Shown here in pieces: positions 16,509 through 62,588 of a stretch of 64,000 bases of DNA. Below the pieces are notes generated by a model. The model was not told the DNA's origin and ran no database searches. It saw only the letters and a program-made list of their open reading frames with translations. How positions within the stretch are numbered: the first letter of the stretch is position 1; each line of letters opens with the position of its first letter. Source of the DNA: Fistulifera solaris. Taxonomy: Eukaryota. Made by a program: the position numbers and the translations under genes. The stretch spans positions 372,001 through 436,000 of the forward strand of contig AP026158.1 in assembly GCA_030295235.1 (NCBI GenBank), read 5' to 3'.

Positions 16509-17554
16509 CTAGCGATACTTGGAACATGAGTCTGCACAACACGGATTCTCGCAATCCCTTTCGAAGCCCATGGTAAAGTATGTTTCGAGTCCATGACTTG
16601 TTTCTTTTGAGAATAAAAACTCGTCGTCAAAGATCCCTCGGTAGCGCGCGACTCCGTATTCATACAAGGCGTCATCTAACACGGACATGAACGGATCCCA
16701 ATCATTGCTAGCGAATGCAGGGTACGTCATGTTTATCATATTCGCCCTATTTTGTACTTTCGGAGCCACTACTTTCCATCCCAACGATTTTGCCATTGTC
16801 GAATACATTGTCTCCCAGTGTTCTAACAATAAGATATGATCGAACAATCTCAAACGGTCAAGTGTATACTCGAACAGGTCCCGTGTTATTTGAAACTTGG
16901 GTACGGTTTGACATCGAGTTCCGCAAATTTTCCGAAAACTCCAATTGTCCGGTTGGGCTTGCCACCAAGCAGCAAAGTCGGGCAAAACGGCTTTCTCTTT
17001 TGGCTCTTTTGTAATTCCCGACACACGTGCTTCCAATGCGAAACATACCGATCTTGACTATTTCGTAGCACCACAATATAGATATAGTGCTCTGGATCCA
17101 TGGCTTCGTACATGTCTCCTTCATTGGCGACAAATCTGTAGAACGTCACGGCCGCAAATCGTTGTTGCGCTTCCAGAGTGTCGGCAAACCCACAACATCG
17201 TTGATCCAATTGCACGTTGCAGTTGTGTTTCTTATCGACGCGGAGTCGATTGAGAGAAGCCGCACCACACATGGTACTGCCTCCATTTTTGTGAATATGC
17301 AACAAAAAGACGAGTTTGCGTTTTCGGCGTTGGTTGGGTAAAACGGTATCATTCCCGGCAAGGGTTCGTAAGGAATTTGATGAGGATACAGCGAAACCGA
17401 AGTATCTGTTGAGCCGGAAAGATGTTGAAAATTGGGAAACCAGCCGAGCGGACTGCTGCCGATCAAGAAAAGGAGAAGAAACAAGAATGCGAGAAGAGAA
17501 CGACGGCTGCAGAACCGATTTTTTCTTTTCTTCCCTCGTCGTGACTTCAGTCAT
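16509..17554 (-). CDS. Sulfotransferase-family-like type II membrane protein, paralog 1; several apparent frameshifts
   Basis: FLLHIHKNGGST (5'-PSB-like) and VLRNSQDRYVSHW (3'-PB-like). The C-terminal part (AQPDNW...CENPCC) is in another frame after ~16993 and aligns with paralog 2. Confidence 0.75.
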
Positions 17555-18242: not shown

Positions 18243-19318
18243 TTAACGATACGTAGAACACGACTCTGCACAACATGGATTCTCGCAACCCCGCTCACGT
18301 CCTTTCGTAAAGTACTGTTCTAGCATTCGTGCTGTGTCCTGCGAAAACACAAATGTATCGATCTTTTGATATCGGGCTAGACCATATTCGTACAATGCAT
18401 CATCCAGCACAGACATGAACGAATCCCAAGCACTATTGCCGAGCTCCGGATAGGTTATATTGCTTGCCTTGGCACTAATATGCAGATTCGGAACCATGCG
18501 CCATCCTAACGATTGTGTGAGTTGCGGCAACATGACATCCCAATACTCCAACAACAAGATATGATCAAAGGACTTCAGCCGATCAAGTGTATATTCAAAA
18601 AGTTCACGTGTGATTTGAAATTTGGGTACGGTTTGACACCGCGTTCCGCAGATTTTCCGAAAGTTCCAATTGTCCGGTTGTGCCTGCCACCACGTATCGA
18701 ACGTTGGTAACGTCACATTCGTATGATACTGTTCTTGACACATGTGCTTCCAATGGGATTGATACCGACTTTGACTTTGACGCAACATCACCATATACGT
18801 ATAATGCTGATGATCCATCGCATCGTACATGTCCCTTTCGTTGGCGACAAATTGATAAAATGTTACGGCCGCAAATCGTTGTTGCGCTGGCAAAGTATCC
18901 GCAAACCCACAACACCGTTGATCGGGTTGTACATTGCAATTTTGCTCTTTGTTGACTCGCAATTGATTCAAAGACGCCAAAGCGCACATGGTTGTTCCCC
19001 CGCTTTTGTGAATGTGCAAAAAATACAGAATTTTGTGGCTCTGACGTATCCTTAATAAATTTCCTAGAGGCGGTTGTTGATTGTCGGAATTAGTACTATT
19101 GCGATTGTGCAATGATTTGTTCCGTTGCATGAGAAGACTCTCCCGAAGTACAGTGTCATTGAGTTCGGAAAAGAATCAAGAGATTGAAAAGGATCACGAT
19201 TGCTGATAGGACAAAGGAAAAAGAGGAAAAGGATTGATGAGAGGAGAAGCTTGCATTGTCGGTTGCGGTTCTTGCGAGCTCTTTCTTCTTGTGAGGAATG
19301 AGCCTTGCTTCTCATCAT
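18243..19318 (-). CDS. Sulfotransferase-family-like type II membrane protein, paralog 2; frameshift between the N-terminal and catalytic ORFs (overlap 19064-19130)
   Basis: YFLHIHKSGGTT and MLRQSQSRYQSHW; long identity blocks with paralog 1 (RKICGTRCQTVPKFQITR); N-terminal TM in ORF 19064-19318. Confidence 0.78.
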
Positions 19319-30042: not shown

Positions 30043-30122
30043 GGAAACGGCGTTAAAATTCTGCCTCTTCGTAGACGCTAAGTAGAATCTTGTACTGGAG
30101 GCAGAATTTTAACGTCCTTTCC
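30043..30122. repeat. 80-bp hairpin/mini-MITE (25-bp arms), copy 1
   Basis: ggaaacggcgttaaaattctgcctc ... gaggcagaattttaacgtcctttcc; arms are reverse complements at 23/25 positions. Confidence 0.8.
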
Positions 30123-30541
30123 GGCAATCTTATGATAAATGCTCTCTCTATCACAGATCCCAGTCAATTGAAGCGTTTCGAAGTCCGAATCACGGAGGCA
30201 AAGGGCAATTGCTTGTATCGGACCCAGTCATTGCCCATTGCCCACACCGCCCACACCCCACACCGAAACAGACGATGTACGATGATGTACTACTGTTGAT
30301 TGGCTACAAAGAACTTTGTACTGCAGCGGCGGATAGTGCCGAGTGGCGAACAACAAAACGACTCGCGTCTCGCGTCTCGCGTCTACCTCGAACCTCGAAC
30401 CTCGAACCAAATGGCCGCGTTTCGCCCCAATGTCCAATGTATACCAACTCAATGGTAGCAGACGATAGCACACAGGTTTGCCTGGGAACGGCGTTAAAAT
30501 TCTGCTTCTTCGTAGACGCTACGTAGAATCTTGTACTGGGA

Positions 30542-31059
30542 TGACAAATTCCGGGAGCGCACAGATAGCTCACCCGAAACGAATCTTCAAAACAGGAAGC
30601 TGAGAACGAAAGAAAGCTTGTCTTCAGGAGACAGGATGCGATAGAATAAAGCGAACAAGGAAAGTCGAGGCAAACCAAATTCACTATTGTTATTCATGTG
30701 AGACTGCAAAAAGCGAAGGTAAAATGAAGTCAAGATCTTGTGAACTTGAACCTGATTTTGTCGACGTCGCCATTTACCAAGTACTAAGCCGCCGTAGACT
30801 TTAACATAACTTCCATAGCTCTCGTACCACCTTGTACGTCACGTAGAACAATATACCACACACTACACACACCTCTGCGACGTGTCAAGAGAAGAACTTG
30901 TATTTGTACCCAAACTTCCGATGACGTGGGCGGAAGCAAACTCCAAAAGATACCTGGAGTACCGAATCCACAAACTCACTATCATTCAGACAGTGACTAC
31001 ACTCCGTCCACACTAGAAGTCCCGAATGCTCACGATCCAAAACTAAACACAATTTGTCA
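30542..31059 (-). repeat. 3' LTR
   Basis: Appears identical to 36983-37501 except for one missing C (agcgaac vs agccgaac); preceded on the minus strand by the polypurine tract. Confidence 0.95.
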
Positions 31060-31208
31060 CTCCCCGTCTTCTCGTAGACACGATCTCAAATTTAAATCCG
31101 AACCAATTCCACCAAACTCCATAACTGTTTGCCTCGCTCTGACACATAAACATATAAAACCACTCAGCACAAAATCACACATATGAGCCGACTCCTTGAA
31201 ACCGTAAG

Positions 31209-34200
31209 CTAGTCTCCGATCTCCGAGGTGTCACCCATCCAAAACAGTACTGCCTTTAAACGCGGCCAGATCTGCGAATATCCCCAATGCTTACTGAGAA
31301 TATCGGCCGGGTTCATTTCGCCAGGAATGTGAAGGAAAGCAATCATACCAGATGCAATTGCCTCGCGAACTCGATGAAACGAAAGCATCGTGTGACGCTT
31401 GTGTAGCTTGGCATGAACTTGAGTCGCACTATTGACAACCGATTGGTTGTCACCAAACATATAAGCCTTGTCACGAATAGGAACTCCCAGGTAGCGAAGT
31501 GTGTTTCGGATATCGATGATCTGTTCGACACACGTCCTTGCGGCGACAAATTCGGATCCATAGGTGGCAGTTTCGACGGTAGCTTGCTTCTTGGAATACC
31601 AATCAATCGGCGTCTGATTAAGAAAATGCAGAATGCCAGTCACAGATCTCCCCGTAGCCATGCAATGCATTAAGTTTGCATCGACGTAATGTGTAGAAAC
31701 AACTGGCATACCGAGAGGTTCCGGAGCATCATGGGGAAGAATCTCTTTCACATCACCGTAGACTGACTTGGACCAATCGTACTCGAAATTAGGTAGATCG
31801 GACAGATCCGGAAGTCCTGTACGAAAACGGATGGCGGCGTTCCGCATCTTCGAAATGTATCCGAAGATTCTCTTAACTCGATCCAAATGACCCTTGCGCG
31901 GAGCGGGAACGAAACGCGGACATCGTCATAACAGCAGTCATGATGTCGAAACGTCCGATACTGATTAACCACTGTAACGAACCGATCAAAGACTGGTAGT
32001 CTCGAGTGCTTTTCTCATCCAGAAACTCCGAAGTGTCCAATTCTGGATGATCGCCTTTCTCTAGCGGTGAAGTGACATTCTGTTTCGGCGACTCCCCGTA
32101 CATCCGTTCATAATTCGCAATGATCTTCTCGGTGTATTTCTTGGGAGACATGCAGAGAGTACCATCCTTGTCACGAGTGAAATCCATACCAAGGTGAAAG
32201 CTGACTGGGCCGGTTCCCTTCAACTTGAACCCGTACTGTTTCATAAGCAGGTTGACAAACCCTTGGGGATCCTTCATCGCTAAAGCTAAATCATCGACAT
32301 AGACAGCAACATACTCGTAGACGTCTCCGTTACGTCGTAGCCAAATATAGGGGTCAGCCTTGCATTGTTGAAAACCCAATTCACGCATGACGTCGGCCAA
32401 TCGATCCGCCCATTGCGCGCTACTAGTACGTAGTCCGTAGAGGGCCTTGCTGATAAGGAGAATATGGCCTGCTAATTCTCCGAACTCAGGTCCAGCCTCG
32501 ATGTAGACGCGTTCGGAAGTAAACGCCTCAAGATAGGCATTGCCAATGTCAGTAGCCCAGAGCTTGAGAGAATTAAGCTCAGCAAGAAAAGCAACCAGAC
32601 GGAAACTCCGTAAACTGACGACACCGGAGTAGACAGACTCAGTAGGGATATCGGTTAAATGTCCGTCTGCCACCAGTCGTGCTTTGTGACGTCCGTCATG
32701 CTTGACGTCGAAAACTAAGTGGACACGAATCTTCTTGTACCCTTGAGGAGGCCTCCCAACAGACTTGTGACCTAAGTCCTTGAAGGTCTCGTACTCTTGA
32801 ATTTGTAACAACTCTAGAGCAACTGCCTCTTTCCACTTGGTGTTCTTATTTTTCTCGTCTAAACGCATCGCATGTGCATAGTCTCGGGGAATTTCGAAAC
32901 CATACTTGTAGCGCGGAGCAGTGTTGTAGGAGCGAAGCTTCGCATGGTTCACCAGTCGGGTGAATTTCTTGTGTCTTTTTGCGATGCCTTTGAATCTCTT
33001 CCAACCCTGAACATCCAAGAGGTTATTTTCCTTGGCATATATAGCGCAGGTCACGGGGTCGTCGGAAGCAATAACATTTAGAGGTTCAGCTGTGATCTCC
33101 CCGTTCTCCCATTCGATCAAAACATTGTAGGAAGAGCCTTTGTATTCGGGATCTCCATCGCAAAATGGGCCTTGATGCGAAATGATGCGCTTGAACTTCC
33201 AAACCGGAGCATCCGCGTCTTGATCTAGGTATGCCATGATCTGGGCATAGCTAAAAACTTCTTCGGCCTCGTCTTCACCAACCTTACATACAAACTTGAT
33301 TCGTTCTGGTACTCGTTTGATGGAAGAATCGAAATCGTCGACAAGACGTGCAATCCTTGCGCGGTGTTTCTGCCCATCAGAAGCCACGTCCGTCAGAAAC
33401 GTCGACCAATCAAATCACTGACATCAACAAGTGGTGGCGGAGGAGGCATGGTCGCTGCGTCGTCGGGAGGGCTGAGAGAAAACGGACTGTTCTCGGTGAC
33501 TGAATCGTTACGGGACAGAACGACAGGAGCAGAAGTAGTAGACATCTCCCGGCAGTCCGAGCGCGAAATTAGGGTCGTCAGCAGTGTACGGACGAACGGA
33601 AGAGCGACAAATGACTTTCTGAGTATCAGCGGACAGAATCTTCCAGCAAAGAGCGGGTCCAACATGTTCAGAAATACCAACAATATTTCCAAGCCCTTCG
33701 GAAGAATCAGAAGGGAAGCCATAGTCGTGTTTCAAATACAACACACGTTGCCAAAAATAGAAGCAAGAGAACACTAACATCGGGAGTCGAACCCGTCAGT
33801 GCCAACAACGGAACTGTCTTCAAGGTTTGGTTGTGCGTGTGGTTGAGTAGAAAACACACGTATTGAAGACAAAGAAGCCACGTAGAAGGTGGTGCACCGG
33901 TGCGATCTAAGATGCGATTGGCAGTATTCTTGATCGTTTGGAAACGGCGTTCGGCAGGGTTTTGTTGTTGTTGATGAGGTTCACTTTGCCATGCTCCGAT
34001 GCAAAAAGTACGAAGAACATCTTGAACCGCGTTGCTGATGAGAACTTGGTAGCGGTCACTAAGGAGAGCAGTAGGGGCTCCCCGTTCGCAAATATTGTCT
34101 TCTAAGGTCCGGGAGGAATTGGCTATCGGTTTTGATACCATAAACATCTGTAACCATGGTATCATGACCAACAAAAATGACTGCAGACGTGGACCCATTG

Positions 34201-36933
34201 TCAACAGCCGGGGGTGTTGGCGTAGACAATATCACACGCGACGTCTTCAGAACGGCGATGAACATTCAAAGCAGGATTTGATGACTTGAAGGCGCTTGAG
34301 GAGGGTGCTTCCAGGAAGTGGGAGGCGGCCATACTGGGTGGTATTTTCGAGCGTCTTCTTGATTAAGTCATGGGAAATCCAACCGAAGTAAGGACGAAGT
34401 CGGCCTAGATCTGGGTCTTGACGCTGGATAGTACGTGGGCGTGACTGGTAGAACTGGTCTGGGAGTATCAGCCACGTCGTCAACATCATCACCGTTATCG
34501 TAAGCGCCGAGTTCGTTGTTAAAGACCTCGTAGTGACGGGCAATGGCCTGAAAAGCAGCGAGGTCAATACCGTAAGGTTCGCGCGTACTTCAATGATATT
34601 GTCAGTAGCCAGAAAAGGCGTAGGAGAAGTCAATCGGGTAAAGACAAAGCGATCTTCAATGTCTATACTATCTCCGTGATGATAGTCACCGAATGCATCA
34701 AAGAGTGGACGGGGATCTTCCAACTCTAGTGTATCGCTGATGCGATCGAACCAATCAGCTTGATCATTTGCATGATCAAGTACAGAGGTCCCAGTCAAGA
34801 TTGCTCGTCATAATGACGTGAGGTAGAGAACGCCATTCTTCGTCAGTAAATGGACCGAATAGGAAGGCGAGCGAGTCCCTGTTGAACCTTAAGAGGCACC
34901 ACATACCCATCAAGAGTCACGATGCATTGGCGACCGCCCGTGGATAGACTTGTCGTCAACGAGGTTCTTGAAGTGCTCCAACTGTCCAGAAGCGTGAATG
35001 GTAGGGCCTTTTCCATATAACGCGTACTGGTTGAAAACGGCTATGACCGGTCCGTTTTGCGTCGTACTACGCCCCCAACAGTACCAAGCTCAAGATCAGT
35101 CATCTGATGGTTGTCGATACCTTGGATGTTGACACGCCCGATGGGGAAAGTCCTTGTGGATGACTCGGACGTCACATCCGGCAACCCCACCGTTAGCACC
35201 ACGATCAAGTAGGGAATCTACATGAGACACGTGTTGAAGGGACACGCGATAAATTATCAAAGTGTTGACTTGGCGACTTGTGTTGCTCTGGGAAGAACGC
35301 GAGAAGGCGACGTATATCGTGTGGAGCCATTGTAGAACTAGAGCGAGCGGAGTTCACAAGCACGGTAGATTCGCCATCAGGCTTAGTAGGTTCTTGAGCT
35401 GCATCATGGAACTCTTCAGTAGGTTCCGAAGTGAGAGTATCCTGAGATGCATTAGGGTCAAAGTCATGGAAGTGAACCGAACGACGGAGGTTGGACGGAC
35501 GACCAGACTGTGACGTCGGATTCGAGTCACGGTTAGGTCCAGCGCTGACATCACGTCCGGGAATAGTAAGCAATCCAAGGATGACGGCCTTGTCACGATC
35601 AGCCAAAGTATCCCAAATTTGGCGCGTCAGCACTCAGCTGAAACCAACGGTCGCGCGGCATACCAGCGTCATAGGAGCAGAACCAGGTGAAGGGGAACCA
35701 CGGAACCCAACAGAACGTCTTTCAGTACTGGTAGCATTAATCTGCCAATCAGAAGTAGGAACGTCGGAATCCAGGGCATATCCAGAAAGGTCTAACTCCT
35801 CAGTACCAAACTCATTCAACGAACCGAAGGCCATGGTATCATGGAAGTTAACGGAACTGTTACGAGATTTGCGTTTGGCCTGTTCATCGACTGCAACACA
35901 ACGCCGAAATCAACAGAGAGCAGTACTGATCGAAAGTCAGGTCTTTGCCAGTCTTGGTTAATTCCAAATCGGCACTAGTCTTGACTTGACGAAATTCGGC
36001 AACAGTGCTGACCGCATTCTCAAGTAGAATTCTCTTGTGTTTATCGGGAAGGGGTCACCGGACATTCGCTCGTACTGACGGACTTGATCAATCCAATCAT
36101 GCACGAAGCCTGCAGCAGTACCACCACGATGACCTTCTCCATAACGAACTGAAGTAATGTAAGAAAGAATAGTTGCAGAAGTCATCTGAGCCTTTGTAGA
36201 CTGTAGATGATGACGGCTTCAACGCCGCATAGACCTTCTGAGCATCGTAGGTATCTTCGTAGTCACGAATAAGGGCTTTTCCTTGGTCAGTAAGCACCTT
36301 ACTTTCCAAAACTGCGTAGAGGAACTTCTGCTTTTCATCGAACAACTCCTTTTCTTCCTCAGTAGTAGGGACATAATCCTCATTAAGCACCTCCCTCGAC
36401 ATCCTGAGCACGGGCCTGATTGACAAAAGAAGCGATGCCAGGCGTCATTGTAACTCTCGTCCTTGAGAGTAGGGAAGAGGGAAGGATCACGTTTGATTCC
36501 TCGCTTGAAAAGAGCTGCGAGGGACATTCCTGGCGCACGAGGTGCAACAGGTGGGGGGACGGGGACAACGGGAACCTCGGGATTGCTACGATCGAACACC
36601 CGTTCAGGACTGAGGCGGAACTTCGTTGAAATCGTCTTCGGTGACCGTCAACCAATCTTCAATATGGTCACCAGAGCGGCCACGATGAGCCACATACTCG
36701 AGAAATGCATAGACCAAGGTCTTATCACCACGGGTGACGTGCATGGTTTCCCCTGTATCGTCACGGAACTCAAGACCTCCGATGTCCAAAGGGGCGCTTA
36801 ACTCGAGAAGCAAGTAGATGTCCACGTATCCGGTGGACACCAACGCTCGTTTGAGAGCAGAGTCATCACCACGACCGAGGACATTGTCCATCACGTGGTC
36901 AAAGGCGTACGCGATTGAGCCCGAGAGAATCAT
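31209..36933 (-). CDS. Gag-Pol polyprotein of the copia element, fragmented by many frameshifts
   Basis: Gag FKRGIKRDPSLFPTLKD; integrase SEPHQQQQNPAERR; RT HLVFDVKHDGRHKARLVA, DIGNAYL, YVAVYVDD; RNase H YVDANL, ETATYGSEF, NPADILSK. Confidence 0.9.
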
Positions 36934-36968
36934 GGCGAAGCCGAAAGCGAAAAACTTGAAAGCGAAAC

Positions 36969-36982
36969 TGCGACTGTTAATC
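36969..36982 (-). promoter_or_regulatory. Primer-binding site complementary to the anticodon arm of tRNA-Asn(GUU)
   Basis: Directly abuts the 5' LTR; minus strand GATTAACAGTCGCA is the reverse complement of TGCGA-CTGTTAA-TC, an Asn anticodon stem-loop pattern. No TGG (CCA complement). Confidence 0.7.
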
Positions 36983-37501
36983 TGACAAATTCCGGGAGCG
37001 CACAGATAGCTCACCCGAAACGAATCTTCAAAACAGGAAGCTGAGAACGAAAGAAAGCTTGTCTTCAGGAGACAGGATGCGATAGAATAAAGCCGAACAA
37101 GGAAAGTCGAGGCAAACCAAATTCACTATTGTTATTCATGTGAGACTGCAAAAAGCGAAGGTAAAATGAAGTCAAGATCTTGTGAACTTGAACCTGATTT
37201 TGTCGACGTCGCCATTTACCAAGTACTAAGCCGCCGTAGACTTTAACATAACTTCCATAGCTCTCGTACCACCTTGTACGTCACGTAGAACAATATACCA
37301 CACACTACACACACCTCTGCGACGTGTCAAGAGAAGAACTTGTATTTGTACCCAAACTTCCGATGACGTGGGCGGAAGCAAACTCCAAAAGATACCTGGA
37401 GTACCGAATCCACAAACTCACTATCATTCAGACAGTGACTACACTCCGTCCACACTAGAAGTCCCGAATGCTCACGATCCAAAACTAAACACAATTTGTC
37501 A
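36983..37501 (-). repeat. 5' LTR
   Basis: 519 bp, TG...CA ends with 9-bp inverted termini, direct repeat of 30542-31059. Confidence 0.95.
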
Positions 37502-38033
37502 TGGGAGGCAGAATTTTAGCGTCCTTCCCTGCTAAGCCTACTTCTGGTACGTAGTATTATGGAAGATTTTTTTCAGGCCATGATGCGATTTGCGATTTCA
37601 AGATCTTATCGCTTCGGAACCAATCAATAAAGAAATAAGATCTTTGTGCAATTTCCAATCCGTCCTCCGTTGCCAAAAACAAACATAATGACGAAAATAG
37701 CTCACATAAAGTATGTCACCCGAAAGTTCTGTGACCAATGACCAACGACCAACTCCGAGAAGGAACGGAGAAAAAGGAAAGGTGTACGTACAGTACCGAA
37801 ATAATTACTGAAAAGGGGCAATAGTAAGATACAGTCATTTGTCATTTGTTTCACTGCGGAGTGCGGACGGGGAGGTTTCGTGCGAACGAATGAAGGACAT
37901 ACGTTCAAAATGGGGCACACAAAATCGAATGACTAGAAATAATAATGCTTTCACACAAACGATAAAGATCATCTATCTTGCTTCCCAAAACAACAAGCAC
38001 ACCTGTCAAAGTATTTTGGATCCGTTTCCAATT

Positions 38034-44888: not shown

Positions 44889-47800
44889 TCAATTCAATGG
44901 TGTCAAGAAGGGAAGAGGGACCAGCACTGTATCCATCAACTGGACTCGATGCTGGTTTCTCATATCGCTAAAAGTATTCGACCGTTCAAGTGGCAATTGA
45001 AAGTCCATGTGAGCTTCTCGAACACGCTCGTCGCATAAATAGGGAGTCGAGTCTGCTTGAAATTCATGAAAAGGACTCTCCTTGTCTACATTTTGATAGT
45101 TTTTTACTTTCCATAAGCTCTGTAGAACAGCGTAACAGATTTGGCGTCTGCGTTCTCGCCAATTCAAAAATGTCTTTTGAATCAGGAAAGCTGCTTTGTG
45201 CCGCTGGACGAGTCGATCGTCCACTAAAATTTCGACCCGTATTCTTTGACCAGAGAGTTGTTCCACAATTCGAACATTCCAGCCCGCGGACCGCGAAACA
45301 TGTCGTTTACGTTCTTTCTTGGAGCCAATGCGGATTACTTTGTATTCGCAGCGCGCTTGGTAACCTCGATAAAGCCGTTGAATCATGACGCAGCAAGCTG
45401 ATTCCACTGATCGAAACGCCCGAGTCAATCGTGATGACTGTGCAGCGGAAGAAAAATGTTGACCAGAGCAGAGTAACGCTAGTTTTAAACCCATGCTTTG
45501 CCTTACTAGTCCTATTAGGACAAGGGCTGGGATGTTAAGCATACGCTCTTCGACACGTAGTCGTAACAGTGTAACCACGGATTCCAATATAAAAATCATT
45601 GCGTCGAATTTCCAATCCTTGTACTGTTTCGACACCGTGCTAGAGAGCATATCGCATGGTAAGTTTTGGCGTCGCTCCTCAAAGTGTCGATGTGCTTTTT
45701 GTAGACCAAAAGTTACGGTGGTGTCGTCAAGGAAGCGATTGCGGTCAAAGAAATTGCGTAAAAGGGTCTGTATTTGTAATACATATCTTAAAAGACGATT
45801 CTCTTCGGTCTTTCGAAGACTTAAAATGATTCGTCTGCACAAGATACCCCGAATATATCTTTGCAAGGTAAGAGCAGATGTTGTACGATACTGAGAAGAC
45901 AGACGAAACTTTCGCTGGAAAAGTACTATTGCCTTTCGAAACGGCTTGTAATAAGCACAGCATTGATATCCACGGAACGAGCTCTGTATCCTAATAGCCG
46001 CAACTGTGTATTCCAAAAAGAAATGACACGAGTGTGGGGCAACCGCACAGGTGACCTTTCGGATATTGTTAGTGGACATTTCGTCGTTCTATAATATGCT
46101 CGCCATTGACGCTGTATCACAGATGCTGCCATTTTCCGAATCTCGATTTCAGCCAAGTTATTGTTGAACTTGTTCCGTTCAATCCAGCCACGAAGGTGTG
46201 ACTGAAGCTTAATCGACGATAACTTGGCTTTTTTGACACATTGACGGGCAAGCAAGGCTCGTGTATGTGATTGGATGTGAAGAACAGCAGTGCGTCTCAT
46301 GGAGGCTTCTCGAACGGCTAGGCACTTGCGTGCAACGGCTTGCATTTTTGTTGCTCGTTCCTGTTGGGCGTCACGCCGATGCTTCTGGAGCTTGCGACTT
46401 GTTACCACCCCACGTGCCCAAGACTGTAAAAGTATAATTGCAGTGCGGAATAATTTGCATCTCTGCCTTACAAGCCATCTTCGTGCGCATGCTTGAATAA
46501 GTATCACAGTCTGGTTGAGCTCGTATTTTATACAAATGAAGTACGAGCGGATCAACCATGCGCGCACATGAGATTGAAGTACAATTAAAGATTCCCGCAT
46601 GGTAATGTAACGTTGTCTGATTGACACACGGCGCAAAAGAGTTTGAATACGAACTGCGGCTTTATTGATCTTGATTTGATAAAGAGCGCTTCTGTTCCGG
46701 CTCTGAATGATAAACTTACGGACGACCGACTGAAGAACAAGAAGAGACGTCTTAACCAAGTTATAGCGATGCACAGCGAGCCAGGTGCGAACTCTCGCTT
46801 GTATGTTTGTAGCAGCATTTTTGGAAATAGCGAGTTGGTAGCGGGGTTTGAATCCTCGATAAATTGACTGAATCAACAAAGCAGCCACACGTGACGAAAT
46901 AAAAGAGTTCTGTGCCAACATTTGACGGCACGATTTCTGGAGCAGGATTGCCGATTCATGTCGAAGTTGTCGCTGCGGGGAACACATCCACATGCGAAAC
47001 ATGGACTGGATCAATAGTGCAGCATGATAACGACGCCACCATGTTTGAACTGTGATCGCCGCCCACCACAAAAGAGAAAAAGTCGCGTGCTGACTGCCAG
47101 CCTCGATAAGTAGCCTGTATGGTTGTTGCAGCAGATTTTGCTCGTTTAAAGTTATTTCGAGAAAGGAACCCCCTTATGATGGCTTGGAGCCAGACACTTA
47201 ATATCTGCAGATTGTGAAGGTGGTGCTGAATCGGAATCATACGCCACCAGCATTGCAAGCGAAGTGCGTGGCGTTCAATCTCATTCAAGTTGAACTGATT
47301 TTGAACACAAAGCGTGCGCCAGTAAATTTGCCAGCGATATGTTTCAGGGAAGGACATGATGATATCGTGTCGACACAATATTCTTTGAAGTGCACCAGCC
47401 TGTAGCAAATCGAAGTTATGTCGTACTAGGTACCCGCGTACGACCCGTTGAATTTGTGTACAAGCCGTGTTTGATCGATGAAACCCAGCGACCAGAAGAC
47501 TCTGAAACTGCAAGAAGCCAGGAGGTGCCGTAGCAAGCCAACGTTGAATCATGTACATTCTTACACAGGACTGGATCGAAATTGCGCTCAAACGCCAAAG
47601 CTGAAATGTTTGCACGGCGTGAAAGGAACGCCAATGGCTCTGAATAATAACGGCTGCGGACAACCATATTCGATATTTCTTGATTTTTTGTCGCATCAAG
47701 TAGCCCCTTACGACACGTTGAATATCAATCGACGCAGCTTTAAAACAATCAAAGCCAGCGGCAAGGGCACCTTGATAGTGTCGAAAAGCAGGCGTTGTAA

Positions 47801-49810
47801 GGATGATGCGAGGGATCGAATGGCGCACGAGGTAGCCGCGGATTTGTGACTGAATGATGGTGATACACGCTCTCAAACATTCAAACATTTCGATAGCTTG
47901 ATAGCGACGCCATCTGGATTGAATCATAACCGCTGACAATTGCTGCCTCTCGAGTTTTAGCAAACTCATAACTTTGGCAGCAGCACGTCGACGCCACTGT
48001 GCCTGAAGAAATGTTGCGGCTAAGTCCTGGTGCTCTTTCACCATTTGTTTCAAGACATCCATTAATCGAATGCCAGCGTATCGTCGCCAGCATGCTTGAA
48101 CTTTCACCGCTGCTTTCTCCTGACATTGTCGTTTCAAGGACTGCACCATACAATAGACTCGACTGGCAAGGTACCTTCGCCACTGCGACTGAATGACACT
48201 GGCTGATCGTTCTCTATTGTGAACGTGGAGGTGCTGGATCATATCGTATCGTTTTAGCGCTAGATACGCACGACATTTCGTCTGAATGATTACAGCAGCC
48301 CGTTCCTGACTCTGCTGATGCATCCGCACCACCAGTTGATACATTCGAACGGCCAGATAACGTCGCCATTGGGTTTGAATCAGTACGATCGCGGGTCGTT
48401 GGTTTTGCAAAAGCACTTGCTTCCACAAGGTATACCGTTCGATTGCCATGACGCGACGCCAGCTGGTTTGAATACAAACAGCTCCCGCATATTGTATCCT
48501 CAGTCTTTCTTGATTCATTTGTAGAGTATGCTGCCATGACTTCCGCACCAAATAACCTCGCATTTGCGCTTGCAGCATGATGGAACAGGCTCGTAAACTT
48601 TCCAACATTCCCATGGCTTGATAACGACGCCATTGCGTTTGGATCAATATCGACGCCGTCCGCCGCGACCGCAGTACGGCACGTTTCTGCACCAACAAAT
48701 CGCGCTGGACCATGACACGTTTGTATTGCAACAGCAATCGACGCTGTTGCAACAGATGGTAATAATCGGCAATTTTACGCCGTATCAAAAACATGCGAAT
48801 GACTGACTGAATGACAATGACACTGACCCGCAACCACCCAAACGATTGTCGGACTTTGTATCCTCGGTAGTGTGTTTGGATCGTACGGGCCGCGCGATGC
48901 CATTCCGATTGTCGAACAAATCGTTGAATAGTGAGGACTGCCCATAACAGTGTACGATAATCGCGTTCTAGTATGGTCATTCTCCACCAAGATTGAATTG
49001 TGTGGATGGCGTTTTGCTGTTGTTGCACCGAAGTGGTCGATCCGGAGGAAAACGAAGAAGCCTCGGGAGTCCTTGGGTCGGACAAGTAATGAGCACCTGT
49101 CTTGATAGGTATCAACTTATCATGACAGACATCTTTCCTTGTATTTGATCGACGAGAATATGCCCTCCACCATGTTTGAATGCGGATTGCGGCGGAATAT
49201 TGCTGATAACGTGTATTCGGGGATCGTCGTCGGGGCGTCGCTTGTAACACTTTTGTGTTTGGCTTGCGCTGATAAAAAGAAGAAGGAGTAGAAGTCGCTG
49301 TTCGTATCATAGGCGTTAAAGCGGACTTGGCATGTTCAATGCGATGCGAGACGGATGCCTCCAAGGCAACAATGGTCTTCCAATCATCCGATGATGGTCG
49401 CCGCGTACCCTGGCCACCCGCTGTTGCCGCCTGCCGTTCGTCTTCTTTTTGTCGTTCCTCGTTCCATGGCATCCGCTCCAGTTCCATTTTGTAGACGGCG
49501 TGTTGATAGAGACGATCATACACAACAGGATCTTTTTGCAAACGATTCCATCGTGTACTACTCATACGACGTGTCACACTTTCGTGCGGCGTGCCGAGAA
49601 TTTGGATGCAATTTTCTTCAAAGGCATCGTTCGTAGCTAAACTACTATTCACACTGATAATTTCATCTTCATTCTCTTCCTCTTTTTCGTCGTTTCTTCG
49701 TCGTCAGGTTGCGGAAGAGACGTCCTTTGATAGGAAGTATGCGACGCGGTCGGTAAGGTTCGCTTGCTCTGTTTATCTTCTGTTTGCGCCGAACGGAGCG
49801 AAGCATCCAT
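44889..49810 (-). CDS. Very large IQ-motif calmodulin-binding protein (ASPM-like IQ array); frameshifts near 49690, 47075 and 46000
   Basis: Dozens of IQxxxRxxxxR motifs across three consecutive ORFs; no CH domain recognised, so ASPM orthology is not established. Confidence 0.8.
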
Positions 49811-51293: not shown

Positions 51294-52486
51294 GGTTGAT
51301 AGTCCTTTTAACGCTGGCCAAAGTTTCGCTTTCGTGTGTTTGGATTTATGAAACAAACTGCGCCGCAATCTGCAGCATGCAACCTGTATGCCCACGAAGA
51401 TCTGTAGTCATCTTGAAGTTATTCCAAGGGAGAACTCTATTTTGGCGCGGTTCGGATCGAAGTATGATTTGTAGTGTACGGCGATTTGTAGAAAATACGC
51501 AAGTGAGCCGTTCAATTAATTTCACATATGTTCTTCTGGCGTACTTCAATCACACTGTCTGAAAAGGGCAGTTGACGTGTCGACTTCTACAGATTGAATG
51601 ATAGCAGAATGGTGCCAAAAGAACTCCCCAAGCTCAACTGCGCAATGAGATTTATTATTAGTTTCCCTTTGGTCGTGAGGGCAATTGCAGAAAAGAATTC
51701 ATTGAACTTACTTGAACACTTGAGCGGGACGCTCAAGAGACTTCTTCCCTCTGGAGAGTGGAGAGCGGACAGCCGTACAACGTACAACTCTCGAGACTCG
51801 AGAGACACGAGCTAGAAAGTCGTAGCCTTCATTTCGCATCTTGCTCGACGCTCGACTCGTCACTCGTCACTCCTCACGCATCAAATTACGTAGTACTAAC
51901 TACGGAGTAGTATAGGAGGAGAAGGAGTTGTATGTTACATGTTGTATCCTACATCCTTCATCCTTCATTCTTTCTGTAAAAACTTGATTGCAGCACTTTC
52001 GTTGAAAGTTGAAAGAGTTAGATAGTACTCCAACGAAAAATGTGCCTTGGTTTCAATTATCGCTTGTGGCAGACCTGTGACTGTGACTCGATTTTATTGT
52101 AATCGTTTGAGTACGAAAGCTTTAAGGTTTAAGGCGAGGGAATTTAATACGGAATAGCAGTGTTTGCCACGATTAAAGCAACGATTAGCGCAAAAAGTAG
52201 CAGGGTATCACGGATCACAATATCGATTATCTTAAGTGGCTAATGGCTGTAACAGAAAACGAAATTATTTTAGCACCACAACCCTTTGAGCCTTTGAGTC
52301 TGCAAGCATGAGAAATGAGGAATATATTCTAAACCGGAAGCCTGGAAGCCGTTGAAAAGATATCATTTCTTTTGCTCATTTCAAATATTTTGCCAAGTTC
52401 CTGAGAGAATAGAAGACATAAAAAGTGAAGCGTCGACGTTCATTATTTCAATATTAGTCCGAAATTTGTCCAAAATCTAAACGCTG

Positions 52487-52560
52487 TACTCCCGATGTGG
52501 CTCGAACACACGACCTTGGGTTTATTAGACCCACGCTCTAACCAGCTGAGCTACGGGAGC
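52487..52560 (-). tRNA. tRNA-Ile(AAT)
   Basis: GCTCCCGTAGCTCAGCTGGTTAGAGCG-TGGGT-CTAATAA-ACCCA-AGGTCGTGTGTTCGAGCCACATCGGGAGTA folds as a cloverleaf; A and B boxes present. Confidence 0.93.
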
Positions 52561-60014: not shown

Positions 60015-62588
60015 TTACAAATCCTTCGACATGTGACGCGGTGAATCGGGGTTGATCCCTCTGTTGGTGAAGCATAGAGGATAATTGAGTGTGAGTTAGA
60101 TGATACAATTCCAGGAAGCGATTCCATCAACTATGCGTACCGCACTTTCGCCAACTCGTAAGCCAACAATTGGAGCGGCACGACTGCACCGAGAGCCGTC
60201 AAAGGACCGTTGCTAGGAATAACAATCGGATTGTCATCGAGACCGGCCGCCAATTCCGGCTTGTCCGTAATGACAATGACTTGTCCACCACGCGATTTGA
60301 TTTCCATTCCCGTGTTGCGCACACTTTGGCGGTGTTGATCATCCAAAAGAATCAAGACAACGGGCGTTCCAGCGACATTCTTTTTCTTGGTAGTTTTCAT
60401 TCGTTCCGTCTTCTTGCGTTTCCCTTGAACCATCCGGGTTTTCAGACGTTGACGGTACATGATAGGCGGCTCCACCAGTGCCAAACTTGCATGCTTGAAT
60501 GAAGACGCACTCAAACCTTCAGCATGGAGAGAAGCTAATTCTTGAAATTTGAAAGCTCCCTCACGCGCAACAGGTTCCGCAAATCCTTTTCCAAGAACAA
60601 AGCACGTGTCCGTAAACTCCAGCGCAGCCGCAAGCTCTTTGCATCGTTCGTGTGCTTTAAGTGCCATACCAAATGCCATGGGCAGACGCAACAAACTCTC
60701 TTTGAGTGCCTCCACATCAAGAGTAGCAAGACGAGACTTGGTTGAAGCATCCTCCTCTTCCTTAGTTTGACGAAACCACAAAGCTAGTAACGCCAAAGAG
60801 GTCACCTCGCTGACAAATGACTTTGTACTTACAGCCGAGCGTTCCCGTCCAGCATGACAGTATACACCCACTTTCGTGGTGCGTGCCAGAGTGCTTCCGA
60901 CCGAGTTGGTGACACTTATGCAAGGCACACCCATGCGAGTCAATGCTAGATCACTGACCCGCAAGGCTTCTTTACGTTCACCCGACTCACTGACAACACA
61001 GCAGCCCATAGTATGAACGGGGACATCGTGGGGAAAGTCATGATAGTCGGTATCGACCGCATCTAAAGCACGAACGGTATTCAATGCCGCTATTTGTTTC
61101 ATCAATAACTCTCCGTACCGCGCCGCGTGCAAGCTACTAGAAACTCCACTGAGAATTAAATGCTTGACGTGCTTCCACTGATCACGATGGGCATCCATCC
61201 CACCCAACAAAATTTTCCCCGTCCCACTCAAGCGGCCACCAAATCCCAAGGCTCGACCGATGGCTTCGGGCTGCTCATAAATCTCTTTCAAGGTCCAATC
61301 TGGATACGGTTCTGGAATTGTATTCGCTTGAAAGTCGTCATCTTGGTGGGAATCGTCCAAGGCTTCGACCCGCAAACTACTCCACGACTCGAGAATGGGC
61401 CCACTCGCTCGAATGACGCCCACTTCTCCATCTTTCAAGTCGACAAACGTTTGTGTGAATCGACGAAAGACATTGATTTCGGAGGCCACGTAGGTGACGG
61501 GCTGCGACCGCGTACTGGACGACAATTCGGCACCGCCCGTCGAGGTCATGCCAATGACCAAAGGACTGCCGTGTGCGGCCACGACCAATTCATCCGGTAC
61601 ATCTTGGCACATGACGACAAGTCCCCAAGTTCCATCACATTTGCGCAACGCTTTTTCTGTCGCTGCTTTCAATAGATGAGGAGTCGACGATGGATCGTTT
61701 TGCTTTTGGAGTTTTTGATAATAGTAATCAATCAATTTCGCCATGACTTCTGTATCCGTCTCCGTTTCAAAGACGTGTCCATATCCTTGCAATTGCTTGC
61801 GCAATAGACGAGCATTGTGCAAGACACCATTGTGCACTACGGCAATCTTTCCGGACCGAATTGGATGCGCATTTTGATCCGAACGGGTTCCGTGCGTCGC
61901 CCACCGCGTATGCGCCATCCCGACCGGACCTTTCGCAGCTTGCGAATGTTGTTGCACTAATGCAATAACTTGTTCCGGGCTTAATACCGCATCGCCCGAA
62001 CCGAATTTTGTCATGTTCTGAATTTTGAAGAGCACAACGAAAATGAGTGAGCCAGCAACAAAAAGAGAGGAAATGATAGTACACACACTGGAGACGCACC
62101 ATGGTATGATCTTCCGAGACTGTCACTAAGCCGGCACTATCACATCCCCGTGCTTTTAAAATATCCAAGCCTTCTAGCAAAAAGTTTCTATGCAATTGAG
62201 ATGACAATAAAGGAAAGAGAGTCAGTCAAACTGGAGGTAAAGAAGAATATCGGCGCAAAAATACGTCTCGGGATGACACAAGAATCACACAGATCTCACG
62301 ATACTGCAGACCTTTTGCAGTCCCTGGCAAAAGAAAATGATTCACTTACCTCGCATCGTAGGAACCGGATCCTACGACCGCCGCAATTCCGGAACATTTT
62401 GTTTTGGAGTTTTCGTTGTTTGTTTCCATCGCGGCAATCGCCACCGTAGCCGCTATTGCCGCCGTTCCCCATAATAAACTGTTGTTCGTGTCAAAATTCG
62501 AATTCAATGCAGTGGAAGAAGCGGTTCGTTTCCACAAAAAAGCATATTTTCGGGTCCACATCGTTCGGGAGCGCAGCAAAGGAATCAT
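60015..62588 (-). CDS. GFAT: Glutamine:fructose-6-phosphate amidotransferase (GFAT/GlmS-like), divergent, with N-terminal mitochondrial-like extension; 4 exons (62588-62350, 62187-62100, 62017-60141, 60060-60015)
   Basis: RG.DSAG, HTRWATHG, NAHP, HNG, ETDTEV, KEIYEQPEA, two SIS domains; last exon RGINPDSPRHMSKDL*. Confidence 0.9.

Follow-up and report, generated by a model that had tools for sequence, protein, structure and literature searches.

Introduction

What primes reverse transcription in a Ty1/copia element that carries no TGG immediately inside its 5' LTR? The question is raised by a 14-nt site within the 64,000-nt stretch of DNA analysed here (the window), where it directly adjoins the 5' LTR of such an element. 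A first-pass annotation, made from the letters alone, had pointed out that a TGG-starting primer binding site is missing, had read the 14 nt as pairing with part of the anticodon arm of a eukaryotic tRNA-Asn (the stem's 5' strand, the GUU loop and two bases at the start of the 3' strand), and had proposed that a half-molecule of this elongator tRNA serves as the primer. Half-tRNA priming is a rare start of reverse transcription and, to our knowledge, has been proved biochemically only for initiator tRNA-Met. LTR pipelines that seek 3'-end tRNA sites would miss the primer site in elements of this kind.

Results

Anatomy of the element

The window holds an LTR retrotransposon of the Ty1/copia type, complete in its parts and lying on the minus strand (Table 1). 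Its two LTRs align in ungapped blocks of 407 and 111 nt, separated by one 1-nt indel, with 518 of 518 aligned positions matching (score 1031), and they share the termini TGACA...TGTCA, beginning with TGACAAATT and ending with AATTTGTCA. A 5-bp target-site duplication, TCCCA, flanks the LTR pair, in keeping with the LTR and target-site pattern of Ty1/copia elements. The target itself is a repeat of about 441 bp, and since the neighbouring repeat unit retains an uninterrupted paralogous copy of the target 441 bp away (30043-30125), the ends of the element are fixed to within a base. The repeat unit that hosts the element (30484-30541 plus 37502-37532) contains an inverted repeat, GGCGTTAAAATTCTGCC / GGCAGAATTTTAACGTCC.

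The coding domains also follow the Ty1/copia order. The reverse transcriptase is of the copia type, with RVT_2 recognised both in the window ORF and in intact relatives. On a family profile built from 35 intact relatives, positions 914-1012 match retroviral integrase cores, weakly (E 0.0017-0.0068), and reverse transcriptase follows downstream at approximately 1372-1588; a D..E-type integrase motif is visible in the ORF translation. RVT_2 was the only family that Pfam recognised at E<=0.1 among the window ORFs as well as in the intact relatives P0004 and P0016, although members of the family share conserved gag, protease and RNase H regions. For Pfam, the gag, protease, integrase and RNase H of this family are too divergent, so standard annotation will under-call these elements.

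When compared with the closest intact polyprotein, P0004, the coding region (31212-36933) falls into at least nine tblastn segments in alternating frames. Broken frames despite identical LTRs could mean either that a defective copy was moved in trans shortly before, or that the assembly contains indel errors; being broken, the window copy itself cannot show activity. The untranslated leader between the site and gag, 33 nt long in the window, measures about 700-1200 nt in three relatives (L180:142-1011, L123:5484-6197 and L125:3756-4932), and the leader of L180 has a long run of C just before the ATG.

Elsewhere in the window, direct repeats at 16776-17314 and 18501-19031 are 75-78% alike, lie about 1.72 kb apart and are probably a diverged tandem duplication. 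The minus strand at 46956-49703 carries a 915-aa open frame with a summed IQ calmodulin-binding motif match of E 1.3e-58, indicative of many IQ repeats.

Table 1 Positions of the parts of the element and of two host genes in the window.
Feature	Positions	Strand	Basis or remark
5' target-site duplication copy	37502-37506	-	TCCCA on the minus strand; same pentamer at 30537-30541
5' LTR, 519 nt, TGACAAATT...AATTTGTCA	36983-37501	-	Alignment to 3' LTR
Putative primer binding site, GATTAACAGTCGCA	36969-36982	-	Complementary to tRNA-Asn(GUU) positions 27-40
Short untranslated leader, primer binding site to gag start codon	36936-36968	-	Sequence; tblastn alignment of intact relative begins at 36933
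gag-protease-integrase-RT-RNase H coding region, many frame changes	31212-36935	-	tblastn against P0004; ORF list
Integrase core region (..SDRYQV..WQSEPHQQQQNPAERRF..)	33707-34231	-	Translation; family profile match
Reverse transcriptase ORF, Pfam RVT_2	31873-33414	-	PF07727, E 1.4e-28
Polypurine tract GAGAAGACGGGGAG, adjoining 3' LTR	31060-31073	-	Sequence
3' LTR, 518 nt	30542-31059	-	Alignment to 5' LTR
3' target-site duplication copy (TCCCA)	30537-30541	-	Sequence
Glucosamine-fructose-6-phosphate aminotransferase (GFAT) ORF	60131-62122		96% identical to Fistulifera solaris protein
tRNA-Ile(AAT) gene, only tRNA in the window	52486-52560	-	ARAGORN; Rfam 64.6 bits

The site next to the 5' LTR

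Read in the sense of the element, from 36982 down to 36969, the site is GATTAACAGTCGCA (TGCGACTGTTAATC on the plus strand), and its minus-strand context at the junction is ...CCGGAATTTGTCA/GATTAACAGTCGCA/GTTTCGC. Reading of the junction sequence confirmed that no TGG follows where the 5' LTR stops; the boundary of this LTR is exact, and the site starts at the first base after it. A search of the window for the 14-mer with two or fewer mismatches gave one match, compared with 0.57 expected, and 45 of 100 shuffles gave at least one. By count alone the 14-mer is unremarkable; its weight lies in its position, its tRNA match and its conservation.

A rival reading is Tf1-like self-priming, with a primer cut from the transcript's own 5' end once this has folded back onto the site, and the available part of a plant survey describes self-priming in some copia lineages (TAR; PMC6317226). 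Comparing the first 25 nt after the LTR with the entire 5' LTR, however, gives a longest complement of 6 nt in the window and likewise in the relative L129, which excludes self-priming of the Tf1 type. In addition, neither strand of the 64-kb window holds a second match to the 14-mer at two or fewer mismatches. We therefore rejected self-priming of the Tf1 and TAR type, to which we assign next to no probability. A conserved second tRNA-complementary box, as in Ty1 or Ty3, was not found either: the one 7-mer in the U5 of the window does not occur in the relatives.

The site complements the anticodon arm of a diatom tRNA-Asn

The site is perfectly complementary to positions 27-40 of the nuclear tRNA-Asn(GUU) gene at a diatom locus on a metagenome contig (L193). 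On the tRNA side, the pairing takes in the anticodon stem's 5' strand, all of the GUU loop and, from the 3' strand, the two leading bases U39-C40, so that the pairing and the eukaryotic tRNA-Asn proposed in the first-pass annotation are both borne out, at 14 of 14 positions. Pairing stops beyond C40, and the adjoining LTR bases do not extend the match to the tRNA. Since the site holds the complement of the anticodon GUU, it is not the initiator tRNA-Met site of strict copia or Ty5.

The L193 gene encodes a tRNA of 73 nt and is a lone tRNA-Asn(gtt) gene with a T-run terminator, which is a trait of nuclear tRNA genes. The start of a seryl-tRNA synthetase gene lies about 440 nt away from it. Every named best hit of this synthetase is a diatom, first Fragilariopsis cylindrus (88%) and Bacillariaceae sp. 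(86%), with further named matches to Seminavis, Chaetoceros, Fistulifera and others.

We also searched sequence collections for the arm, written as the pattern TGCGA, loop CTGTTAA, TCGCA, followed by a T loop. In prokaryote genomes, all 120 of 120 among the matches listed were tRNA-Asn(gtt), bacterial or archaeal. Going by these gene calls, the prokaryote matches show that the arm is a real tRNA-Asn arm, and they are silent on the host. In metagenomes, for which the pattern disallowed the letters of bacterial genes at positions 26 and 44, 110 of 114 among the matches listed were tRNA-Asn(gtt), and position 26 is G or T in each of these 110 genes. Lone tRNA-Asn genes with a T-run terminator occur at L193, L224, L274 and L283 among the metagenome matches listed; some of the metagenome tRNA-Asn matches have a fungal look. 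Because both scans required the arm, the frequency of diatom tRNA-Asn genes that lack it is invisible to them. Marine metagenome contigs (L183, L194, L200, L237 and about 30 more) carry tight tRNA-Tyr/tRNA-Gln/tRNA-Asn clusters with the same Asn arm, and these clusters look virus-borne.

The host and its tRNA-Asn

Judging from the coding sequence of the window, the host is a pennate diatom: besides the Fistulifera solaris protein given in Table 1, the GFAT matches that carry organism names, among those listed, are diatoms. For the tRNA-Asn of the host, we aligned four sequencing runs (X1-X4) to L274, a locus with two tRNA-Asn genes. Run X1, which contains 76% of the element's sampled words, yielded a single contig of 414 nt. 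Its first 47 letters match L274 tRNA-Asn positions -1 to 46 at 44 of 47 positions with no gap, a stretch that spans the whole anticodon arm, and the contig then runs into a T arm and the 3' strand of an acceptor stem; this strand fits the acceptor 5' strand in the alignment. Given this match and the fitting acceptor, and given that the tRNA-Ile of the window is only about 77% alike over the same stretch, the X1 contig is almost certainly the host tRNA-Asn. Its anticodon arm is likely identical to the site, to judge from this alignment, and could differ from it at up to three positions.

The other runs were less informative. X2 gave six short pieces with three to five differences each from tRNA-Asn, which may be other tRNAs, and no piece matching the L274 tRNA locus was found in X3 or X4. 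In a stem-independent search of the ten bacterial bins that contain contigs of the family (G001-G010), the tRNA-Asn genes were bacterial or cyanobacterial only, with none of the eukaryote type.

The site is kept at the LTR junctions of relatives

Of 7999 candidates scored against the reverse transcriptase ORF of the window, 1687 are homologues at E<=1e-20, many of them polyproteins of about 1890 aa on metagenome contigs of 6-7 kb; no relative was found among viral contigs in searches with the RT ORF and with a gag alignment. The DNA of relatives came from 17 loci on eukaryote contigs mis-binned in prokaryote genome bins, 15 of them found through the polyprotein and two through the gag alignment. 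Eight of these loci are purely coding or stop before the junction between LTR and internal region, and the other nine reach it. At several loci this junction is preceded by an LTR located beyond pol, as expected from an assembler walking through the shared LTR.

The motif stands directly after the LTR end at nine of nine relative junctions and, with the window, at ten of ten. Five junctions have the exact 14 of 14 bases (the window, L124, L128, L129 and L132), and the other five differ by one to three bases or an indel. L121 (GATTAACAGTCGTA) and L179 (GATTAACAGTCCCA) match at 13 of 14 positions; L125 (GATTACCAGCCGCA) matches at 12 of 14, with two mismatches that break the pairing inside the loop; L180 (GATTAACAGTCTTG) matches at 11 of 14, and the site of L123 is that of L180 with one extra A. 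Over the nine aligned junctions, the majority base is present in 7-9 of 9 in each of the 14 site columns and in 6-9 of 9 for the last six LTR bases (TTGTCA). In columns farther out in the flanks it is present in only 2-6 of 8-9. The window reverse transcriptase is 50-65% identical to those of the relatives (seven junction loci with an RT alignment), indicating that the site has been kept across a deep clade with otherwise unrelated LTRs. Conservation across the family, which the first-pass annotation had named as a check on its reading, is therefore seen for the site and not for its flanks. As far as aligned junctions can tell, these data support the view that a large clade of diatom copia elements has conserved the 14 nt as a primer binding site, at which priming would take place.

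Conservation next to U5 could in principle reflect something other than tRNA-Asn. The site might bind another small RNA ending in ...GACUGUUAAUC, or serve another cis function near U5, such as packaging, dimerisation or recognition of the end by integrase, with the tRNA-Asn match being incidental. Two features would fit such a role: conservation extends to the last six LTR bases, and the site is followed by G at 7 of 9 junctions and then by T at 5 of 8, bases that do not fit positions 26 and 25 of the tRNA-Asn genes seen. Since position 26 of tRNA-Asn is G or T, these conserved bases after the site are left unexplained by the tRNA. Yet a 14 of 14 match to one defined tRNA segment that ends within an anticodon stem, like the sites of copia type, has a chance of about 1e-5, as estimated from a few thousand tRNA 14-mers against 4^14, and the site is the only 13- or 14-mer common to the L193 tRNA-Asn gene and the 64-kb window on either strand. 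Reading the site by eye, we noticed no palindrome or hairpin. We therefore regard both of these readings as very improbable.

The most divergent variant is itself complementary to a tRNA-Asn. The GATTAACAGTCTTG site of L180 and L123 pairs perfectly with another tRNA-Asn arm that occurs in nature, CAAGA-CUGUUAA-UCUUG. Loci with this arm (CAAGA-CTGTTAA-TCTTG in the DNA) are called tRNA-Asn in 29 of 33 cases in the prokaryote collection and in 24 of 24 in the viral collection, and some of them are of the eukaryote type. The bins of L180 and L123 contain bacterial tRNA-Asn only. That the site covaries with the stem of the host tRNA-Asn is for now an idea; if it does, the site would also indicate the host range of these elements.

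Discussion

Proposed priming by a 5' tRNA-Asn fragment

Taking the position of the site, its tRNA match and its conservation together, we think it probable that the 14 nt serve a recently inserted diatom Ty1/copia element as its minus-strand primer binding site and that the primer is a 5' fragment of tRNA-Asn about 40 nt long. Within the element RNA, GAUUAACAGUCGCA would pair with positions 27-40 of cytosolic tRNA-Asn(GUU), that is, with the 5' strand of the anticodon stem, the anticodon loop and U39-C40. The primer would be tRNA-Asn 1-40, released by a cut in the anticodon stem, on its 3' strand between positions 40 and 41, and the 3' end of this fragment would prime the minus strand next to U5, as copia and Ty5 do with initiator tRNA-Met. 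Because a base-paired 3'-OH beside U5 is what reverse transcriptase requires, and pairing here goes no further than C40, a primer of this kind would have to end at C40. The tRNA match and the conservation support the half-tRNA mechanism with elongator tRNA-Asn put forward in the first-pass annotation; from the analogy with copia and Ty5 we infer the cleavage at 40/41 and the priming by the fragment. The proposal predicts that virus-like particles contain a 5' tRNA-Asn fragment whose last base is C40.

Several points count against this reading. Five of the ten junctions are imperfect, and the semi-conserved G and T after the site lie outside the proposed pairing. The tRNA itself is modified within the paired stretch: tRNA-Asn carries t6A at position 37. 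As stated in the part of PMC13191261 available, it normally carries queuosine at position 34 as well. Both modifications could hinder copying of the primer.

The order of events could also be reversed. Full-length or precursor tRNA-Asn might anneal first, through its unfolded anticodon arm, and be cut only afterwards where the duplex ends, either by a nuclease of the host (RNase P, for example) or by the RNase H of the element, with the cut making the priming end. The complementarity and conservation data are the same for this order as for cleavage before annealing. In the accessible part of a review, the Ty5 primer end is ascribed to internal cleavage mediated by RNase P (PMC5371799). For diatoms, a small-RNA survey describes, for nine tRNAs, short fragments that cover the D loop and the anticodon, Asn being unnamed in its main text (PMC4247016, available in part). 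As the data are alike for both orders, annealing first is a sub-variant of the mechanism proposed above and not a true alternative; we consider it unlikely.

Priming by a tRNA-Asn fragment, if it occurs, bears on a larger idea. The first-pass annotation had already raised, as speculation, a tie to nitrogen status. Some diatom copia elements are transcribed under stress or nitrogen limitation. One may speculate, as a long shot, that an abundant diatom copia clade depends on a 40-nt tRNA-Asn fragment and tracks the host stem, such that cleavage driven by stress or nitrogen gates retrotransposition.

Comparison with known systems

Half-molecule priming by initiator tRNA-Met in copia and internal initiator tRNA-Met priming in Ty5 are described in the available portions of two papers (PMC5371799, PMC10275265). 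According to the part of the plant survey at hand, half-molecule sites use tRNA-iMet in copia, Ty5, Osser, Bryco and part of Gymco-II, and tRNA-Ile in Bianca; the same part names tRNA-Asn as a 3'-end primer only (PMC6317226). The accessible text on the fungal element FunCo1 gives an internal tRNA-Lys site, ATTAAGAGTCT (PMC5445492). The site in the window falls in with this half-tRNA-primed class and its internal primer binding sites: it adjoins the LTR and ends in the 3' strand of the anticodon stem, not at the CCA end.

As far as these partial sources go, the element is like copia, Ty5, Osser, Bryco and part of Gymco-II in being a Ty1/copia element whose primer binding site adjoins the 5' LTR, lacks TGG and complements an anticodon stem-loop. 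It would further share with copia and Ty5 a primer end in the 3' strand of the anticodon stem. Unlike copia and Ty5, it points to elongator tRNA-Asn(GUU) in place of initiator tRNA-Met and to a putative end at C40.

Among the elongator cases, Bianca resembles the present clade in that a half-molecule elongator tRNA is used across a whole copia lineage, with pairing over a modified anticodon loop; it differs in using tRNA-Ile with inosine at position 34 and in having plant hosts (PMC6317226, in the part available). FunCo1, as far as its available description extends, likewise has a site that spans the anticodon loop of an elongator tRNA, and this site differs from the first 11-12 nt of the diatom site essentially at the anticodon. 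In contrast to the diatom element, FunCo1 uses tRNA-Lys(CUU), its site starts one base later, its primer end would lie at position 39 and its hosts are fungi (PMC5445492).

The copia-like elements of diatoms are known as CoDi, with groups CoDi1-7 and clades A-D, in the available parts of PMC2806351 and PMC2774666. As depicted there, CoDi elements share with ours the diatom host, the Ty1/copia domain order and abundance in marine metagenomes. P0004 and P0016 show no chromodomain at E<=0.1, unlike CoDi clade A, which is marked by one at the integrase C-terminus. Identity with Blackbeard, Surcouf or PtC34 was rejected; their published primers do not match the window. The two founding papers on diatom copia elements are silent on a primer binding site or tRNA in their main text: the word 'tRNA' has no occurrence in that of PMC2806351, and neither 'PBS' nor 'tRNA' occurs in the main text of PMC2774666. 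Our search of the full-text literature, which covered main texts, found no half-tRNA-Asn site.

An elongator half-tRNA primer is less unusual than the first-pass annotation took it to be, as sites of this kind have already been published for tRNA-Ile and tRNA-Lys. We thus arrive at a known mechanism with a new tRNA: half-tRNA priming has been described for tRNA-iMet, tRNA-Ile and tRNA-Lys, and tRNA-Asn would be the fourth. Diatoms would in turn be a new host group for half-tRNA priming, represented by a clade whose relatives in public metagenomes number well above a thousand.
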